Made by a program: the position numbers and the translations under genes
Part shown: positions 13,113 to 64,000 of the stretch, piece by piece
Layout: every line of letters starts with the position of its first letter
Numbering within the stretch: position 1 is the stretch's first letter
Assembly: GCA_040285855.1 (NCBI GenBank)
Contig: JAUFOQ010000016.1
Span: 558,001-622,000 of the forward strand
From: Eukaryota sp. GEM-RC1
Taxonomy: Eukaryota
Length of the DNA stretch: 64,000 nucleotides
Direction of reading: 5' to 3'
Notes under the pieces: generated by a model
The model's input: only the letters and a program-made list of their open reading frames with translations
The model's database searches: none
What the model was told of the DNA's origin: nothing

Positions 13113-13679
13113 ATAGAAACATTTGCTATCTGAGTTGCTTCTTTGTTATTAGAAAGACAGTGCTGTTGTCACTGTTTCTAAACTTGTCTTAAAACGGCAT
13201 CAATAACTATTGGCCCACTGAAACAAAGTAATCCCTCGAATCTAACCCCCAAACTGACTAACTTTAGGATGATTGATCCTGTAAATGATTCAATGATTGG
13301 CATTAATTGATTGTTTTAATAAGCAAGTGACTTTCAATGATCCTGATTATGAAAAACTTTCGTTGGAACAACTAGTTCTAAGTGAAATCTGATCTACTTT
13401 GAAGATAGTTTTATCAAAGATAGACGTATCACTTTCTGTACGAAAGTTATTTTTAAATATTTCAATAATTAACAATAACTTAAATTTTGAAGTCCCCAAT
13501 GGGGAAATTTGCTTTCACCATCGAATAGTACTAAGTAATAACCAAGTATTAAAATACAGTTATTTCCTTCTTCTTCAACACGTTTCTTCAATAAACCAAG
13601 GTCTTTCAACAGGTCTCCTCTTAAACATAAATGCAGTAGAAAAAAGGTTTTCATGTTGGGATTTGTCAAAAATAGAATC

Positions 13680-14075
13680 ACTAGGGAGGAGGAGAATACT
13701 TCAAGAACTATAGTACAAGAGCGCGTGATCTTAGGGAAAGGTATGTGAATCGATCCTGAACGACAAAGTAGAGATCACGACGAGATCGAAGGACAAATGG
13801 TTGATTGCGTGATATCAATCGAGGTGATTAGACGTGGAGATCGTAGTAGCAGAGAAAAGGGTGATGGCATTAAGAGAGGCGGAGGAAAAGTAAGATAGGA
13901 CAGAAGTAAAGCCGTGGCTTACTTGAGTACAGTACTCGAAAACAGGATAAAGTGGACGGTCCCCTTACCACGATGATCTGAAAAGACTTTTGTTATAGAG
14001 AGAGGAACTTCTAAAATTAGGAAAAGGTCAAAAAGAAATGTCACAAAACGTCATCAACAACTTCTGATATAGAAG
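13680..14075 (-). repeat. Diverged repeat, inverted copy of 6790-7190
   Basis: See 6790-7190. Confidence 0.8.
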
Positions 14076-14389
14076 CGTCAGTGCTGTCCATTATTGACAA
14101 GACTCACGACTACTCTTGACAATAAGTCAACTTCTGTCGAATGAAGATCCTTATCTTGAATCCAAACCCCAATTTCGATGAGAGTTCTGCCATCCTCAAG
14201 AATACAACCCAGCTTCTCAAAGATCTCTCCTTTCTCACTGACAATCTCTTCTTTTATCTAAATCTTTTTTCGTGCTTGCTGTTTGGAAGTCAAGATATCT
14301 TCTTTAATGGAACCGGTGTGTAGAACGAGCTTTTGTTTTCAGTATCTGAGTTCAAGAACGCGAGTTTTCATATATACATCCCCTTTATT

Positions 14390-15100
14390 AAAAACATTAA
14401 AATAAACACAAATACTAGAATTCAATATCATTAAAGCAACAATCATTGCCATTAAAACTCACATCAGCTTTTTCTTCATAAAAAACACTGAGAGCTAATA
14501 GAGCTTTTGAAATCATGATAGGAATTGTTTTAAATATTGTAAAAACAATACGATTCAACCAAAATTTGAAATCAAATTTCTTGTTCATTCTTTTTTGACC
14601 ACTTTCTCAAAATCAGAGAGAAAACAAAGAGCATCTCTACCAAGTCGACCATAAATTGAAATTGCAAAAGGACATAATTTGTACTCAACATGTCTAATAT
14701 GTTTGAGAGCAGTCAGTGGTTCATCATATTTGTTTCTCTTGTATTGTTCTGAAGAATTCAGTGGCGAAACTTCAGTTTTAGCATCCTTGAATGCACTTTT
14801 TTTGCAAACATCCACAGTAATCACATCAACAACGGTTAGTTCATCATTAACTGATGGAACTATAACATCAGCTCTTCGTTTACCAAAAGTCTTATCAGAA
14901 TCACTATTTTTTGAATTATTGATTTCCAGTGATCTCAACAGTGGCTCAACGAAAGATTCGATTTTGTAGGACTTACACATTGCATGAATTTGATCTCTAA
15001 CAGCATCATGAATACAAGTTCTATAAGTAATGAAACGATTGCAACTCAAAAGGTGAGAAAAAGTAACTAATTTACCACATTTGCATTGAAGCGAGTTTTC
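14390..15100 (-). mobile_element. 5'-truncated non-LTR retrotransposon, C-terminal zinc finger plus restriction-like endonuclease (CRE/NeSL type)
   Basis: CKCG...HLLSC...HDAVRD...EP...RADV...VVDV...E.YKRNKY...PFAISIYGRLG. Confidence 0.85.
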
Positions 15101-15771
15101 AATCTTGTACTCTTATCTTGTTCTTGAAACCGAACACGTAACATGTATAGGTCAACATACGATCATTCTGTCTGTTTTTTGAGTTTGTTGATCACTTCAA
15201 TAACTCATTACGTGAGAGCCAAAATCAATCAAAATCAATTATTGATTGGAAGTAAAAACTTTCAGAAAAGAGATTAATGTATATGAATATGATGTAGTTA
15301 TTCTGTTTTTCTGAAACACAAAAGCATTTACTTTGGGTAGTTTTTTGTTAGTCTCTGATGGCTGAATAACAACATGAAATTGATCTTCAATTTGAGGAAA
15401 TCCGGGTTTTCACCTTGACAATCTAGTGAAATCATTTTTGTAGAATTTGATACGCTGTATTAAATCTTCATCAGAATCACCATCCTATTTACTTCCTCTT
15501 TATATTTAGAGCTGTGTACTACTCGACTGGACTCAACTTGAAATTCATTTGAGTCGACTCGACTTGACTCACGAGCGGAGTCGGTTGTCTGGTCTATATT
15601 TGTTGCATATTTTTTAATTTTAGATGTATCTGTTTTTTAGATATGACAGTTTGGGTTCAACTCGAATTGTGACAATAGACCCATCCAAGGCTTTACTAAT
15701 TACTGTGTATACATTCGGTACAAATTAGTTTATACAATAGTTCATACAAAATTCACAATACAAAGAACAAT

Positions 15772-47207: not shown

Positions 47208-47306
47208 CGCATGTTTGAGACTTTTGACTCAAAACAGTTTTGACAATCTTCGTCTTACTTTTCTTTGTTACACATCTTCACACCCATTGTATGTCAATGT
47301 TCTCAT

Positions 47307-47380
47307 CTTTCATGATGTTAACTCAGTTCTGCTTCTGAAGTGACTTCGGTTGCTCAGGAAGATACTTACCGCCTGATCTT
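47307..47380 (+). ncRNA. Box C/D snoRNA (SNORD38/snR61-like guide), copy 1
   Basis: C box ATGATG (47312); guide CAGTTCTGCTT plus D' box CTGA (47335); cUUCGg hairpin; TTACCGC plus D box CTGA (47373). Confidence 0.85.
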
Positions 47381-47429
47381 TATTGTTTTTTAACTTCTTA
47401 CCCCAGTTTATGTATGTCAATGTTCTCAT

Positions 47430-47503
47430 CTTTCATGATGTTAACTCAGTTCTGCTTCTGAAGTGACTTCGGTTGCTCAGGAAGATACTTACCGCCTGAT
47501 CTT
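47430..47503 (+). ncRNA. Box C/D snoRNA, copy 2
   Basis: Identical to copy 1. Confidence 0.8.
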
Positions 47504-47552
47504 TATTGTTTTTTAACTTCTTACCCCAGTTTATGTATGTCAATGTTCTCAT

Positions 47553-47626
47553 CTTTCATGATGTTAACTCAGTTCTGCTTCTGAAGTGACTTCGGTTGCT
47601 CAGGAAGATACTTACCGCCTGATCTT
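47553..47626 (+). ncRNA. Box C/D snoRNA, copy 3
   Basis: Identical to copy 1. Confidence 0.8.
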
Positions 47627-47716
47627 TATTGTTTTTTAACTTCTTACCCCAGTTTGTAAATAAATACAGTTTTCTTTATACTTTTAAGTTGGTTTCAGAT
47701 TTGAATTAATTTTATA

Positions 47717-55398: not shown

Positions 55399-56796
55399 CT
55401 ACGAGAACATTTCTGGTAGCTTCGTTTTCCAATCATTGTAAAACTCCTTACAGTAATCAACATTTCCAAGGGAGTTTTCCAAATCAATAACAAATTTAAA
55501 AAGTACTGGATCGAATAATTTAGTTAAAATCCAATTCAAAACTTTCCTGCAGCCCTCCAAATCACTCAATCGAACATAGAACAAAGCAATAGACTTAGCT
55601 AACATTGGAACCTTTACTAATCCCAATGGAAGTTCTTCTAAAGCCCTAGAGTACACCTCCTTAGCTCCTTCTGCATCTTCAATCACGACTTCCAAGTAAG
55701 AGGCGTACATTATCCAAAGATAGACTAGTCGTTGAAAAGTAGGAGACGTGGAATCAATCTCGACTTTAATTGCCCTTTCGAACACAGAAACAACTTCATC
55801 CTTGGGTGAGCTCAATTCTTGTAAAATCTTAATCAAATCAAACCAATTATTAACATCATTTGGCTTAATCTCAGTACGATACAAACAGAAATACTTTCTA
55901 GACAGCAAAGCAACTGTCTGAATATCACTCGGATCTCCATACTTCCTCTCAATAAATAGCCACTCCTTACCTACTTTAGACTTGTCCTTCGTAGCAACAT
56001 TATCAATAGCAAACTTAAACGCACTCCTAGCTTCATCAAGAGAACCAATCTCAACATAGAGAGAAGACAACTCTAGAAAGATAGTAACATCAGCTAAGGC
56101 TTGGTCTAAGAATCCTTGGATGAAAACTTGAGCAAAGTAGATGGACTGTTTCAGGTCTTGAACTCGATGTTTGGCAAAAGACATTGCATCTCTAAATGAT
56201 TGAGCTTTAGGACGAGTGGAGATCATTTGCTCTAAGACTTTCCATACGTTGTCCACGTTATTCATTCTAAACTCAAAATCAGCAAAAGCAATGTAAGCAG
56301 AGTTAGGTGGATGCCAGGACATCCACTTGTTATAGACAGCATGTTGAGATTCATAAGGTTGATTAGATCTGCGGAGGACATCGAGATATATGATCCAGAG
56401 TTTATCTATTCTGGGAAGAGTGCAAGTAGCACGGGAGAAAACTTCAAGAGCTTCTTCAAGATTACCACCTTTTAGTTCGAGTTCAGCGTAGGCTAACCAT
56501 AGCTTTGGTTCTGTATAGAGAGTACACAGAGCTCTTTCCATGATACTACGCATACGACGGTGGTCTTGCATGGCTAATTCCCATGAAGCGTATTCAATCC
56601 AGGGTTTGGATTTGTTTGGAGATCTGCCAACATTGGCTTCGAACTCCCGACGACGTCTAACTAGGTAATCAGCAAGATCCACTTCATCGGTGATTTGTTC
56701 TTGAAGAGGACGAAAGTATATGTCAGCCTGACGTTCAAAGGCCTCTAGTAAGATTTGTTCAGCTGTGATCTGGATAGGAGCAGACTCATTGGACAT
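55399..56796 (-). CDS. CLF1: Crooked-neck/Clf1 splicing factor (HAT repeats); true 3' end probably frameshifted
   Basis: APIQITAEQILLEA, RRREFE..V, WIEYASWE...RMRSIMERAL, LPRIDKLW, WMSWHP. Confidence 0.92.
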   Translation of the reverse strand: MSNESAPIQITAEQILLEAFERQADIYFRPLQEQITDEVDLADYLVRRRREFEANVGRSPNKSKPWIEYASWELAMQDHRRMRSIMERALCTLYTEPKLWLAYAELELKGGNLEEALEVFSRATCTLPRIDKLWIIYLDVLRRSNQPYESQHAVYNKWMSWHPPNSAYIAFADFEFRMNNVDNVWKVLEQMISTRPKAQSFRDAMSFAKHRVQDLKQSIYFAQVFIQGFLDQALADVTIFLELSSLYVEIGSLDEARSAFKFAIDNVATKDKSKVGKEWLFIERKYGDPSDIQTVALLSRKYFCLYRTEIKPNDVNNWFDLIKILQELSSPKDEVVSVFERAIKVEIDSTSPTFQRLVYLWIMYASYLEVVIEDAEGAKEVYSRALEELPLGLVKVPMLAKSIALFYVRLSDLEGCRKVLNWILTKLFDPVLFKFVIDLENSLGNVDYCKEFYNDWKTKLPEMFS

Positions 56797-56935
56797 CAGC
56801 TAATAGCTTACGGATGTCAAATAATAGTGACCCGATTAGATCACTGGAGGGAGAGAATTATGTAGAAGTTCTTTTCAAAACTTCTGGTCTACCATTTCCT
56901 CTACCATGTTCATCTACAATATGAATCATGTTCAA
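56790..56935 (-). ncRNA. Candidate Fanzor omega-RNA scaffold
   Basis: Consecutive hairpins overlapping and following the Fanzor stop codon, including a 9-bp stem with a GAAA tetraloop. Confidence 0.45.
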
Positions 56936-59900
56936 CACAGCGTTCACGTTGCGGTTCCAAAGACATCCACACTTTTGCAAGTGAGTAATCCATGTCTTAA
57001 AACCGTTGGTGTTTTTGCTCTTCTGTAAGGTCTGGGATTTTGAACACGGTGTTTGTTTTCATTAATTCCATGTTCATTTTTCAGCACACACTTGTGACAT
57101 CGAGCGCTTGTTCTATATTCATCTATCAGCAGCACCCGATAATGATGCTTTTTGAACATTGCCCTGTGACCAACATTCTTTGTTGGTGCTTGATTCTTGA
57201 ACATAGTCTGCTTCCAATCTCCCATCACTATCACTGTATTTTCTGGACCTCCAAACTTCTCTTTCTCGATTCAAACCTTTCCTTGGTCATATACCTCTTT
57301 AGCTTCATTATTCTTATTTCGTCTGATTGATAGTACGATCCCATATTCAGAGAGAATTCATACTTAAAGCTTTACAATATGCCAAGAAATCATCGTGATC
57401 AAGGCCTTTACTAGAGTGTTTACTTAGTTGTTTTTCCCACTCTTCATTAGTTTTTCCTCCAATGATCCATGACTTTTTACTCTCTCTGAAGAACTTCTGC
57501 TGATCTTTGCCAGGAGTCTCTCTATTTCTTTGAGGGGCTGTCAATCTTTTAAAATGGAACTTCTTGAGCTCCTTCTTTATTCCAGGTTTCTCAGGTGGAG
57601 GATCTTTTGGGGGTTCCAAGTTGGTTGTGCGGTAACTCGCGGCTCTACCTTTGGCTTTGCGTCGTCTTTCATTGTTCAGACGTTTATGGTAGCCACTGTT
57701 ACCACTCTTTCCATTGTCATTTCGCCACTCCTCCCACTCTAACTTAGTATAAGAGGGTTCTTTGGGTTTTGAATTTTGAATTTTTGGCGGACCGTATTTT
57801 CTTCTTGCTCCCATCATCAACTGATCTCTTATCCCAGGGTCTCCACAGACGATAGAGGAACTCTTCAGTAATTCTACTGGTACATCTGTGATATACAGGT
57901 CGTTGTCTACCATATTTCTACTAGGCAGACGATTTCTTCCAATTAAATCGTTTCTTATTAAACTTAGAGAAACGCTTATTCCATTGGTGCGAATTGAATG
58001 GTTAAAGGAATAGCCCTGTTGACGGGAAAGCTTTCTTTGAGGTTCTAAAGATCCAACTCCAGTACTGATGTTGGTACTTTTCGAGATTTCCATGTAGTGT
58101 TGCTTCACTATTCGAAGGAAACCTGTGGTCATTGGGAATAAGAATCCGATAGAGAGCTCCTGTGTCAATAAAGATATGACCAGGAGATTCAGAAGTTTTC
58201 AGAGGAAAGACTTTGTAAATGGAAGGTTTAAAGCACTTCATATCTTCTGGTTTTCCATCTGCTGCATCAAAGTCATGAGATGACATTTGAGTGACTTCTG
58301 GCGTCAGCAATTCCACCCCGTGCATTAGAGACATTGAATAAAATATGAAATTTTGTGGATATTTCTTACACAGATATGATGCACTCTTTAATCCATGTGT
58401 TTCAGGAATAAATAGATGTATGTTTTCGTAGAGCATCAACAGTTTGGGGAGTAGTTCAAATTGCAATTCACGAATAAGTACCGAATGCTCTTTGAATTTT
58501 TCAAGTAGAAGATTAAATACGTTTAAGAGATCGTATTTAGGGTACTTGCTTTGACACAAGGCATTAATAACCTCTCTGAGAAAACAGTGAAATATCTCAT
58601 TTTTTTGTGTTTTTTAAATTTTCAATATTCTTTTTAATTTTTTCGCTTCCACTAAATTGGTCGAAGTAGCAATTAATGAATTTAATCACGTACGTCACCC
58701 AGTGTTCTTTAATATTCACTTCAAGATTATCAATGTATTCAGCAACACTGTACTTTGTAATTCTACCCATAGCTGGTAAGTAGAGATTTTCTGGAGTTCC
58801 AGATTCATCAGTATCCGCCATTGTAGAACGATAGTATTCTTTAAAATACTCATTTACTTTTTCCTTCGAGTACGAGACAGCAGGAGGAATCGAACTAAAT
58901 CTACCTTGCATAGAAATTACTTCAGAATTTAAATCTGATGTCTGCTCCTCTAAAACAGACAAAATATTGGTCAAAAGTTTAGTATAATCAATTTGATTTC
59001 TACCAATTTGTGATAATAGAACAGCCTCACTGAGCTCTTTCTTTGAGCCTTCAATCATTTATATTTTTGATTTTTCCATGGCAAGCAGTTCTTCCATGAC
59101 AGGCAGAATTTCTGTTAGTATTTTAGAGAATTTATCTGTTATGTGAACACTTTTGTTAGTAAATTTAATTTTTTCTGTGTCCATTGCCTCAAGAGTAAAG
59201 GGCTCATGGATCGTGACAACCACTGATACAGCTCATGATTATCTAGGGATTGCTTATACTGATTGACAGTAAACCCTTTCAGAAATTGACAACCATGTGA
59301 CATCAATTGGTCATGTATTATTACATAATGACGAATAATTTCTGAAACTTCGCCAAAATGTAATAATTTACGTAAACCTAACTTTTTAGTTTTAAAGAAA
59401 GGCAAAGCAGGATTTGGTCCTTGAAAAACTGAAAAGAGTTTCAATGTAAGAATTACAGTAGCTGACTAATTCACCTCTTCCTTCAGCTGTTTCCATCAGA
59501 GTAGAATTTGATCTGCTGAGTTTAGATTTTCCTTCAGCCAGAATACTTAAAGAAACACTATTTAGACTGGTGCCAAATTTTGAAGTTAAATTTTTCTTAG
59601 CAAAAGAACAGCAGTCTAAGGAAGTGGAATTACCAAATTTATGAGAGATGGTAGAGTTCCAAGAGGCTGAAAGAAAAGTAAGTGAAATTATATTGTCTGT
59701 CTTATCTTCGTGAGTGACGGTAGTATCAATCTTTAAAATTGAAGCTCTTTTAAGAACATATGGTAGATCATAGAAATCGGAGTAAAAGCCTGAAACAAAG
59801 TCTGGTGAAAAGAATTGAAAAAATTGAGAAAATTAGAAATCAAAAGGAACTCAGATTTAAATGAAAAAATATTAACAGCTTCAGACTCTAATGCAGAAAT

Positions 59901-60519
59901 ATCTCCAACACTAAGCAAATAATTATCTACATTAAAAATCTTTTCATTTTTAAAATAACAAAATGAAAAAACCAATCATGACGATCGGAACCACAAAACT
60001 TCCTTCGTCAACTTCATTGAGAGTTTCGATATCAACTACTAAAAGGGTGGACATTTTGGCAGTTGATTTGACTCTTAAAGATAAATTCACTAAAGGTGTT
60101 GCTTTAATTTTTTCGTCAATGTTGATACCACGAGAACGTACTTTGTCAAGAGTGTTTCCACCCTTATATTCATTTTCAAAATAGGTTTTTGGAATTTCGG
60201 ATCTACTCAAGGATACTGTATCAGAATCAGAAGTAGAAGACAAAATATCCGTCTTGGAAAACGGACACGGCGGTAATTCTAGTTCAGATGCTAGACGCTT
60301 TCTGTCAGAAATTGAATTTGATTTTGCATAAGAACTACACTGTATGGAATTTTCTGGAGTGGATCGCTTTTGTCGAGTGTTACCACAAGACACGGATCGC
60401 CGCGATATTAACTCCTCAGGAGTTCCAGATATCAAGCTGTATGCCTCTTCTCTGAAACTGCCCTGGGTTGTTAATCCTGGGTTAGGGCCGTAGTCCCCAC
60501 CCAAATCCACTGTACTCAT
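56858..60519 (-). mobile_element. Fanzor1 (eukaryotic TnpB-like) nuclease gene, multiply frameshifted, probably inactive; 5' extent inferred
   Basis: FNHSIRTNGISVS; RuvC-I CGDPG (D at 57839-57841); VMGDW; RuvC-II IDEYRTSARCHKC; HGLLTC..C; RuvC-III WNRNVNAVLNM; GRP; TAA at 56860-56858. Confidence 0.88.
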
Positions 60520-61065
60520 CAGACATGGAAGAAAAGAAATTCACAACAGTTCTATAGTAGTTCTAGTTGTGTGTAAATTGAGTGCATTGCTAAACATACT
60601 ACATGTAGTATTGGCTTTTCTTTTAAAATGCAGAGTTTATTTGCAACAACAAAAATTGACTTTATCACATATACTTCCCACACAAAAATTTCTTGTGGTC
60701 TAATTTAAGAGTCTGAAACAATGTTTGAAAATTTGAGGATCGTAATGTGGTCCTCTAATCATTTGGGGTCACATTCCGCTCTTCAAATTTTAAAACGATT
60801 GTGTCAACAGAGCAACCTTGTAGGCATATACCGAAATATAAGTACATCAATAATACGTAATCTGATTGAACTATGATTGACTGTAAAGTTCAGTCCAACT
60901 ATTTGTTCAGTAATTTTAGTGACCATGTAGACATCTCATCACAGTGAATTCCTGCATTTATTTATCGATAGTTGTGTCAGTTAATCTTAGCATCCGCTTA
61001 AAAACACTGTTGAATGACTGACTTTCTCGAAAATGGAATTCACTATCTACCACTATCACTGACTC

Positions 61066-62631
61066 ATGTATCGAGCTAAGTCAGAATCTTTTTCGCCTCA
61101 CCAAACAAGCAATAGCATCAACTCCCTTCACTCCATTCAATCCATAGATGGGAAAACATGGTTTGGTGGTATTGTTGTTCTTGTCGCTTCGGTCGGGCTG
61201 ATCCCGTTTTCTTCTGTCTCGTCTCTACTACTGTTTTCTCCCGTGATCCCAATGCCTCCCCAAACAAGCAATAGCATCAACTCCCTTCACTCCATTCAAT
61301 CCATAGATAGGAAAACATGGTTCGGAGGTGCTGTTTTTGTGGCTTCGGTTGGGCTGATCCCGTTTTCTTCTGTCTCGTCTCTACTACTGTTTTCTCCCGT
61401 GATCCCAATGCCTCCCCAAACAAGCAATAGCATCAACTCCCTTCACTCCATTCAATCCATAGATAGGAAAACATGGTTTGGAGGTGTTGTTCTTGTTGCT
61501 TCGGTTGGGCTGATCCCGTTTTCTCCTGTCTCGTCTCTACTACTGTTTTCTTCCGTGATCCCAATGCCTCAATCTCAATGGAAACGGAATCTCGCAGAAG
61601 ATGGAGATGTTGAGACTAATCCCGGACCTCGCAATTCTCATGATCGACAACGATTGTCTTCAGACGTTTTTTCAGAGAAACCAATTCGTAGAGAAACTAC
61701 AACAACTCGATTTTTGCCAGTACCCAAATCTTATCATGTACGCTTTCATAGTCGTTGTAAGATTTATCATTCTTGTTTAGCACATTTAATGAAATCATCT
61801 GGTACAATGGATAACTTAGTAATTTGTACATGTATGGAACATTTCGATCCCGCTGTTGCTGAATTTCAACCAAAAGATTTGCCTCCTCCCACAGTTTCTC
61901 CTCCTGCAAATTACATTCGTCAATCTTATCTTAATGAAATACTGAATTTTCATTACAGTAATTTTCCTGGTACATTACCGTCCATGTACAAAATTGACAA
62001 TTATATTGCAGCAAAACATTATGGTACCTTTCTACATGATACCAATCATCACTTGTATTCTATTAATGATCCAATTCTACAGTCAGTTCAAAAATACGTT
62101 TCTGAACTGGACACAATGAGAGTTCCTGTCATTGATCCTGATTTTAAAATTTGTCCAATTTTCTGTGACTTCATTTCTCCTTGCCGTTATTGTTTACTTC
62201 CTGGTCATTTCGCCAGAAACTGTACTTTACAGTTTACAGAAAAAACTAGCCTTGTTTCTATGGATCTCTCTGTTGTGTATAAAAATTTCTCACATGATGT
62301 ATTGCTCAACCCTGAAGCACTGTTGGACCTTTTATTAACTATATTGCATTTCCATTTGCACACAAACAAACATACTGACTTGTATGATTCTCAAACAAAT
62401 ACATTCACTTTGGAAATGTTCGGTCGTAATTCTGATTGTATTTCAAAAGCAACACATGAAAAGGAAGAAATCCGAAACAAAATTTCTGCAACTTATCCAC
62501 GTCTAGTTTCGGATATTAACTATGTCTCGTCTTTACTTTCAGATGACCAAGATGGAGATGACGTTGGTGATGTAGATAATTTTGGTGATTTCGTGGCGAT
62601 AGATGATGATGCATATAAGATGATCATATAA
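61066..62631 (+). CDS. Probable mobile-element polyprotein: 3 hydrophobic repeats, 2A motif, Cys/His region with CCHC knuckle; coding may continue to about 63270 across frameshifts
   Basis: WKRNLAEDGDVETNPGP (motif 61600-61629); CRYCLLPGHFARNC. Confidence 0.7.
   Translation: MYRAKSESFSPHQTSNSINSLHSIQSIDGKTWFGGIVVLVASVGLIPFSSVSSLLLFSPVIPMPPQTSNSINSLHSIQSIDRKTWFGGAVFVASVGLIPFSSVSSLLLFSPVIPMPPQTSNSINSLHSIQSIDRKTWFGGVVLVASVGLIPFSPVSSLLLFSSVIPMPQSQWKRNLAEDGDVETNPGPRNSHDRQRLSSDVFSEKPIRRETTTTRFLPVPKSYHVRFHSRCKIYHSCLAHLMKSSGTMDNLVICTCMEHFDPAVAEFQPKDLPPPTVSPPANYIRQSYLNEILNFHYSNFPGTLPSMYKIDNYIAAKHYGTFLHDTNHHLYSINDPILQSVQKYVSELDTMRVPVIDPDFKICPIFCDFISPCRYCLLPGHFARNCTLQFTEKTSLVSMDLSVVYKNFSHDVLLNPEALLDLLLTILHFHLHTNKHTDLYDSQTNTFTLEMFGRNSDCISKATHEKEEIRNKISATYPRLVSDINYVSSLLSDDQDGDDVGDVDNFGDFVAIDDDAYKMII
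61102..61570 (+). repeat. In-frame tandem repeat, 3 copies of about 156-159 bp
   Basis: Copies start at 61102, 61261 and 61417. Confidence 0.95.
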
Positions 62632-63279
62632 GCATTTTGTATTGGAGATGTCGAGATCATCATCTCCAATACAAAATGCTTATATGATCAGTTCAATGCA
62701 ATTAGGGACAATTCCTGGTCCTCTCGTCTTATATCTCGGTTCTTTTATTGTTTTAAACTTGTTCTGCACTATGACAATGGGTCAACTTTTATTGAAAGAA
62801 CCAATGAAAATGGTGAGACAGCCAAGTACACTCCTCTGGAAGACATATTCATTTACCATCATAAAAGTATCAATATTTTGATGTTCCAATTGGCGTATTG
62901 TGCCTACTATGAACATAATTCGAGACCTTCTATTAGCAAGTTTTGTATTGATGCTTTGACTTATTTGGTGTCATACAGTTTTAGTGTGTCGTCTGAATGC
63001 CACCTGCGCTACCAGAAATTAGCTAAAAGGTACATGAGCTGGCAAAATTGTATGATCCAAAAATCGACGACACTGTGGTCACATCACTTTCTCCAAAATA
63101 AAAATGATAGGGCTTTATTGCGTACCGATCAAAGTTTCCTAGATAGTGCTTTAATGTTTCGATTTATGTGGTCTTATAAAAGAGTAATTTATATTCTCAC
63201 TACGGTAACATTCGCCGAAAATAATTTCTGTAATTTTACGGTTGCCGAATTCTATGGATACCGGTATTTGTAAATAATA

Positions 63280-63620
63280 TACTACTAAACGACAATCTGG
63301 TGTCATTTAAACAACACCGATAACTATCAAATCTTTCAACAGCTTTGTGCTCATAAAAGGAACTCACAGCTAATGATGCTTTGGAGATGATTAGGGGGAA
63401 TAGTTTTTAAAACAGTAACAACGGTCCGATTCAACCATAACATATGATCAAAACGTTTGTACATTCTGTTGTTTACAATGTCTCTGAAATCGTTTCGAAA
63501 ATTCCATGCACATTTTCCTAAGCGGTCATATATTGATACATCAAAAGGGCATAATTCATATTCGACTTGTTTTAGAGCATATCTGGAAAATACACATTCA
63601 TTGTATTTTTTGTATTGTAT
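63280..63620 (-). mobile_element. 3' end fragment of an RLE-type non-LTR retrotransposon
   Basis: YALKQVEYELCPFDVSIYDRLG is homologous to ALKHIRHVEYKLCPFAISIYGRLG of the 14585-15049 ORF. Confidence 0.8.
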
Positions 63621-64000
63621 CAAATCGTTTCCTGTGTATTCTTCATAAGTTGTGCACTTTCTTGTGGTGTCAATATTGCTGTTTGTTTCAACTTACAACA
63701 TGCTACATCTATGTGAAGGAAACATTAAACGAATAAACAAATTTAATCTATTGTTGCAAATAGAGTCTAAATTAACAAATTGATCTGAATTGTAAACCTA
63801 ACATAGAAAAGAACGCAAATGTTTACCTACAAGTTTCTTTACTATCAGGTAACTCCATATCAATCCTTGATTTCTTATGTTTAGAATGTATTTTTCTTCT
63901 TTCCAGGAGTGTTTAGGAATTCCGTCTCCAGGAGTACGGAGTTTTGCATTTTCAAGAAGCGGAGAGAAATGGTGTAAAATGTTGTATCAAATAAGAAGCA

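Follow-up and report, generated by a model that had tools for sequence, protein, structure and literature searches.

The window analysed in this study is the whole 64,000-bp stretch of contig JAUFOQ010000016.1 from Eukaryota sp. GEM-RC1. Its surroundings are eukaryotic housekeeping genes, e.g. that of a HAT-repeat splicing factor at 55399-56799. On the plus strand at 61066-62631 lies an open reading frame of 521 aa that carries a putative 2A (StopGo) peptide, WKRNLAEDGDVETNPGP, at 61579-61629 (Table 1). Our reading of the window confirmed this frame, and the three repeats, the 2A core and the CX2CX4HX4C zinc knuckle noticed in a preliminary description of the same DNA are all real. The product upstream of the 2A, counted from 61066 to the predicted skip site, has the 187 aa that were given to it. 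Downstream of the 2A, the protein consists in order of a basic S/T-rich linker, a CxC..H word, the CCHC knuckle, a helical region and an acidic patch, the last of which had also been noticed and begins at 62542. A promoter scan of the locus, made with bacterial models while the host is a eukaryote, found none.

Table 1. Features of the 2A gene and its neighbours (positions in the window; P0002 and P0003 are database proteins described in the text)
Feature	Position	Strand	Remarks
Leader	61066..61578	+	171 open codons; ATGs of the same frame at 61066, 61252, 61408, 61564
Three tandem 156-bp units (first 159 bp)	61095..61570	+	94% matches
2A/StopGo peptide	61579..61629	+	G187/P188 is the predicted skip site
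Post-2A product as now encoded	61627..62631	+	334 aa
Single CCHC zinc knuckle	62182..62223	+	C-x2-C-x4-H-x4-C
Perfect 30-bp inverted repeat, 10-nt spacer	62621..62690	.	arms 62621-62650 and 62661-62690; z -8.96
In-frame continuation	62632..63273	+	213 codons; 62647-63042 homologous to P0003 residues 371-485
3' end of repeated element	63270..64000	-	antisense, abuts stop at 63273
Divergent intergenic region	60520..61065	.	546 bp; imperfect hairpin at about 60712-60806
Remnant of a frameshifted family-B (polymerase delta-like) exonuclease gene	59229..60519	-	Pfam, P0002 and PDB matches
Degenerate 2A-like word GDYGPNPGL	60469..60495	-	nine codons into polymerase remnant
Fanzor1 remnant	56858..59200	-	several frames; 5' limit approximate

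The 2A peptide and a small orphan family

In eukaryotes, a 2A core that follows an upstream sequence of the motif 4 type leads to skipping of the Gly-Pro bond. The StopGo core is defined as (D/G/C/N)(V/I)ExNPGP in the accessible part of PMC12846837, and the core found here, DVETNPGP, fits this definition. The pattern occurs twice in the window, in the 2A gene and at 12813, and in none of 150 block-wise dinucleotide shuffles, so that a chance origin of the core was rejected. The second occurrence is an exact core as well; it lies in an ORF at 12744-13109 (+) and is preceded by a hydrophobic, class A-type sequence.

Upstream of the core, the W at -17 and a DLTxDG-like stretch point, for the peptide of the 2A gene, to the class described as motif 4, WV(R/K)DLTx[acidic]G, in the accessible part of PMC12846837, where almost 100% skipping in lysate is given for this class and changing its characteristic residues nearly abolishes activity. 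The W, L, D and G of motif 4 are matched, and D and T are replaced by N and A; the D is kept in the relative P0003. The window 2A shares with viral motif 4, as described in that part of the paper, the W at -17, the L at -13 and the G before the D(V/I)ExNPGP core, in the same register as the 30 distinct viral peptides that we compared. It differs in the two replaced residues and in being chromosomal, near an N-terminus instead of between capsid and replicase, with skipping here a prediction. Class B 2A peptides, in which, according to the accessible part of PMC12338488, the W stands at about -16 and the centre reads EEGIE, were rejected as the class of this peptide, since it has W at -17 with a GDVE centre. 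The four supplementary files of that paper have no match to the names or the peptide of the relative; a 10-mer of the window occurs in four of their rows, and both of the two rows listed are other sequences.

The viral peptides came from a pattern scan of viral contigs, which gave 38 loci and 30 distinct 17-mers. Among these 17-mers, all of which had been selected in advance by their W, D/N, L and core, the mean identity of the window peptide is 11.4/17, compared with 12.9 among the viral ones, and the T of the window is found in none (0/30). The peptide had been called a perfect 2A; this is true of its core octamer, but only one of the 30 viral peptides of the class has its upstream N, and the same count applies to its A and to its E. 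Since these rare residues stand at critical positions, the putative 2A of this copy may skip weakly.

Relatives were searched by phmmer with the 2A and the downstream region as query. Three matches at E<=0.001 were found among 1.84 billion representatives, in a library that conceals any relative sharing over 50% identity. These are the window gene, P0003 with 533 aa (E 3.5e-32) and P0004 with 254 aa (E 4.7e-26). The latter two are NCBI hypothetical proteins of Eukaryota sp. GEM-RC1 and are located on different contigs. P0004 starts downstream of the 2A. P0003, the only relative that covers this region, conserves the 2A at its position (1/1), and is laid out as a 58-residue leader, a W-type 2A (W-x2-D-L-x3-GDVExNPGP, residues 59-75), a basic linker, the CxC..H word and knuckle also present in the window gene, and a helical C-terminal half. 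Between the window gene and P0003, the identity is 11/17 in the 2A, 9/44 in the adjacent linker and 80/228 in the core (Fisher's test for the excess in the 2A: p 0.002 vs the linker, p 0.02 vs the core), so that the 2A is better conserved than the protein around it. Its selective conservation in a relative that is 33-35% identical makes a genuine StopGo signal very likely, and this comparison of sequences lends support to the earlier proposal of one. Since P0003 keeps the 2A and the knuckle behind an unrelated leader, the conserved unit consists of a variable leader, the 2A and an orphan zinc-knuckle/helical protein. The 2A gene belongs to a new orphan protein family. A word-based search with residues 170-521 recovered only the gene itself among 1069 candidates; it is insensitive, since it missed P0003. 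Scans of viral and metagenome contigs found no relative of the 2A gene or of P0002, a protein related to the neighbouring polymerase remnant.

All four ligands of the knuckle are kept in the three family members (3/3), and that of the window gene matches Pfam zf-CCHC at E 0.01-0.04, under the cut-off; the released protein would likely bind nucleic acid through its knuckle. Searches of Pfam, PDB, PHROGs, ESM Atlas and Foldseek gave no assignment of family or fold to the post-2A protein. That no APE or RT domain follows the 2A, as previously stated, agrees with the lack of such a match in Pfam or PDB, and neither domain was seen by eye in the three plus frames of 63271-64000. Pfam searches over the three family members found no RRM, coiled coil or ORF1 family and no KDZ/CxC or other DNA transposase, and one sub-threshold zf-CCHC, three sequences being a limit to the detection of remote homology. 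Sequence and profile searches of PDB with the family had no match, PHROGs had nothing at E<0.05, and the best ESM Atlas score was 0.77, below the usable level, with no usable match for the core. AlphaFold models had a mean pLDDT of 35 and 38, too poor to interpret, and Foldseek found nothing at E<=0.001 in PDB or BFVD. Similarity to LTR gag, as represented by a gag-like ORF of the window, is confined to the knuckle (probability 16%). This gag-like ORF (7861-9066, minus strand) has a CCHC knuckle and is followed by a weak SET-domain fragment (E 0.035), with no recognisable pol.

The leader repeats and the interrupted frame

Tandem Repeats Finder gives a period of 156 with 3.0 copies for the leader repeats. 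Each unit encodes a hydrophobic stretch (KD-19 of 1.6-2.07) and has an in-frame ATG at its end; that of the last unit alone would give a 21-residue leader. The leader had been taken for a membrane-type product. Several results argue against such a dedicated role. The leaders of the window gene and P0003 have no homology (701 of 1000 shuffles score as well), and that of P0003 is shorter and weakly hydrophobic, with a hydropathy maximum of 1.2. Moreover, T-rich composition accounts for part of the hydrophobicity. When whole units were shuffled, 4112 of 20000 shuffles were open (21%) and 150 of the open ones were as hydrophobic (3.6%), i.e. the leader is more hydrophobic than 96% of them; for the T-rich half alone, the fraction was 1716 of 12086 open shuffles (14%). 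Matches of the leader to Pfam membrane families are below the cut-off, without a passing stretch.

GC content at the three codon positions is 0.47/0.46/0.44 in the leader, i.e. without bias, compared with a biased 0.46/0.35/0.24 in the core, and units 2 and 3 differ in six codons, four of them non-synonymously. The leaders of the window gene and P0003 are both internally duplicated, the last unit stopping 3-4 residues before the W. Some features speak against the leader as nothing but a by-product: the unit length is divisible by three, the single 3-nt indel is in frame, and 171 codons are open although only 21% of shuffled units are; read-in to the 2A, however, requires an open leader frame with or without a job for the leader peptide. 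Most likely, the hydrophobic repeats were triplicated in place not long ago and are a by-product. The repeat unit folds no better than its shuffles (z 0.93 and 1.17).

Broken frames had been described up to about 63270. What we found is a single TAA in this frame, at 62629-62631, followed without a shift by 213 further open codons. The alignment with P0003 extends across this stop, and the sequence past it scores 119 against P0003 residues 371-485, compared with a maximum of 83 in 1000 shuffles (pairwise E 4e-11). The TAA lies within the left arm of the perfect inverted repeat, inside a 22-residue gap of the P0003 alignment. The inverted repeat is likely a template-switch duplication that broke this copy. 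As the stop lies inside a perfect 30-bp fold-back, the window copy of the 2A gene is likely a dead pseudogene. Alternatively, the stop could be explained by an intron, as four in-frame GT-AG pairs span it, or by an assembly artefact. An alternative genetic code was rejected, since host genes have normal ends and P0003 lacks the fold-back that contains the stop. Rfam gave only sub-threshold, miRNA-like matches at the fold-back and no ribozyme.

The 727 bp of the window left beyond 63273 are occupied by an antisense repeat. This repeated element is present in four decayed copies with a common 3' end (2875-3092, 11659-12020, 14401-15112 and 63270-64000); it has no Pfam match, and from its motifs we take it to be an RLE-type non-LTR retrotransposon.

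The divergent neighbours

The preliminary description had placed the 2A gene head-to-head with the 5' end of a Fanzor gene, about 550 bp away. The divergent ORF that starts 546 bp from the 2A gene, with its ATG at 60519, turned out to be the 5' piece of a frameshifted polymerase exonuclease gene, while the coding start of Fanzor1 is estimated at 59130-59220, some 1.9 kb from the 2A gene, an estimate from a single weak alignment (E 1.7) and an assumed tag length. Fanzor was accordingly rejected as the head-to-head partner, as the polymerase remnant intervenes. This remnant matches Pfam DNA_pol_B_exo1 (E 5.9e-7), and its best matches of solved structure are polymerase delta from yeast and from human (E 7.7e-10 to 1.8e-6). 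P0002, which is a second copy and likewise broken, matches 60005-59229 with 64-96% identity in three pieces and is found on a third contig, apart from P0003 and P0004. The word DIE that ends the first polymerase piece is presumably Exo I.

The 2A-like word in the polymerase remnant, GDYGPNPGL, is off the core at three of eight positions, scores under 5 on the viral motif profile and holds a telomere-like hexamer; as it stands, it would not be expected to skip. The pattern GDxxxNPG, which was picked after the word had been seen, was found in 0 of 150 shuffles. The hairpin between the divergent genes has a z of -5.06 (0/200 shuffles) and no Rfam match. This word and the hairpin are the sole hints of a shared element, and the remnants of polymerase and Fanzor are probably neighbours of the 2A gene among several elements in decay.

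The Fanzor1 remnant itself is real, with E 2e-17 to Fanzor1 of P. parasitica. In a word search for Fanzor, none of 3193 candidates passed, and the one match in a contig scan (L001), of 11 residues, was disregarded as too short. In PMC3627910, as far as its accessible part goes, Fanzor1 is described from large DNA viruses and many transposon types. A Fanzor1 remnant 1.9 kb from the 2A gene recalls the Fanzor1-carrying elements of the accessible parts of PMC3627910 and PMC10711439, but here a polymerase remnant lies between, no transposase was found, and no terminal inverted repeat or target duplication of at least 9 bp was detected in the 200-bp stretches at each presumed element end. The words 'polymerase' and 'exonuclease' have no occurrence in the main text of PMC10711439.

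Origin and possible role of the 2A gene

We argue, with a probability of about one half, that the 2A gene is one broken member of a small protist family with dispersed copies, likely derived from an unclassified mobile element, and that in this family a conserved 2A of viral type is predicted to free the zinc-knuckle protein of its variable leader. Ribosomes starting at any of the upstream in-frame ATGs would skip the same Gly-Pro bond. Because skipping would occur whichever ATG is used, the downstream protein, of roughly 460-550 residues, would always begin at the same proline, and such constant release would let the leader duplicate and drift. A conserved 2A behind a replaced and duplicated leader is the pattern expected if StopGo discards any translated leader. 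The 2A gene stands among three other element remnants; as neither terminal repeats, a target duplication nor a transposase was found, its putative mobile origin rests on this context and on the 2A. The 2A might also throttle output, as proposed for the 2As of retrotransposons, which are argued to lower output in the accessible parts of PMC3894237 and 10.64898/2026.06.17.732966. With the 2As of mobile elements it shares a position near the start of the ORF, and the role suggested for both is to set the downstream protein apart or to limit its amount, whereas APE, RT and RRM are absent here, the upstream motif is W-type and not leucine-rich, and the downstream protein is an orphan.

In another reading, the 2A gene would be ORF1 of an APE-type non-LTR retrotransposon, with its ORF2 deleted or pushed beyond the window by the antisense insertion at 63270 and the 156-bp units as promoter-like 5' monomers. 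LINEs typically have CCHC knuckles and, at the 5' end, monomers in tandem, and the second 2A of the window, at 12813, stands before words resembling an APE endonuclease. Precedents come from N-terminal 2As on ORF1p-like proteins in ticks and a limpet (10.64898/2026.06.17.732966, accessible part) and from the share of reverse-transcribing elements among contigs with class A 2As, given as about 21% in the accessible part of 10.64898/2026.09.24.754024. Yet the family has one central knuckle only and matches no RRM or ORF1 family, APE and RT are missing from the plus frames of 63271-64000, a search without length limit found no longer, fused relative, and the ORF at 12813 matches neither Pfam nor PDB. 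We regard an ORF1 origin as unlikely.

Rather unlikely, too, is that the 2A gene, the polymerase remnant and Fanzor1 (56.9-63.3 kb) all descend from a single DNA element, either a large DNA virus that became endogenous or a transposon with cargo genes, each divergent gene of which started with a 2A. Three non-housekeeping genes are packed between the splicing-factor gene of the host and the retro-insertion, the two divergent ORFs each begin with GDxxxNPG and a basic S/T-rich linker behind it, the region between them has a strong hairpin, and a second broken polymerase copy exists; Fanzor1 is at home in such elements (PMC3627910, accessible part), and a 39-kb IMG/VR contig has three 2As of the same class beside a DUF927-like gene, the latter a Pfam match below the cut-off. 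These points are set against the location of P0002 on a different contig from P0003 and P0004, with no close copy of the 2A gene of 286-912 aa found to accompany it in a word-limited search, and against the degeneracy of the word in the polymerase remnant. Terminal repeats and target duplications of at least 9 bp were missing near the presumed ends, as were relatives in viral and metagenome contigs. If the doubtful one-element origin were true, it would be a new, undescribed 2A-using DNA element from an anaerobic protist, carrying Fanzor and heading each divergent gene with a StopGo of the RNA-virus type.

Improbable, in our view, is a working bicistronic host gene, in which the 187-residue leader would be a membrane anchor or signal and incomplete skipping would split the knuckle protein between the membrane and the cytosol or nucleus. 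The hydrophobicity of each unit, attained by few open whole-unit shuffles, the 521 open codons and the dual targeting described in the accessible part of PMC4981915 speak for it. The leader, however, is not conserved, and that of P0003 peaks at 1.2 only; the T-rich half alone is often matched by open shuffles, Pfam membrane matches stay under the cut-off and the conserved C-terminal region is lost to the stop. The 2A-like dual-targeting signal sequences of that source, as far as it is accessible, likewise have a hydrophobic sequence upstream of the 2A core, but in the window gene the hydrophobic stretch stands apart from the 2A, occurs three times and has no counterpart in P0003.

N-terminal 2As in eukaryotic genes are already known, and their purpose is debated. 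The locus adds a W-class 2A of viral type that sits on an orphan protein, in a lineage related to metamonads. Among the papers listed by our literature searches and in the supplementary files of PMC12338488, we found no report of such a 2A gene; a bioRxiv survey list of 4,218 eukaryotic 2A-like peptides could include these sequences.

Some further observations were made along the way. The 39-kb contig, IMGVR_UViG_3300020445_000015 (L030/L031), has a 1302-aa ORF with three identical motif 4 2A peptides, adjoining the DUF927-like gene (Pfam E 0.0015, under the cut-off). It is possibly a case of StopGo in a DNA virus or Polinton-like contig, and we found no paper joining the terms for such a case. 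In the window, three perfectly identical 123-bp tandem copies at 47288-47655, between two genes, are either a very recent duplication or an assembly artefact. A 700-bp repeat, 75% identical and inverted, is formed by 6782-7492 and 13382-14085, and a near-perfect palindrome of 63 bp lies at 2400-2462.
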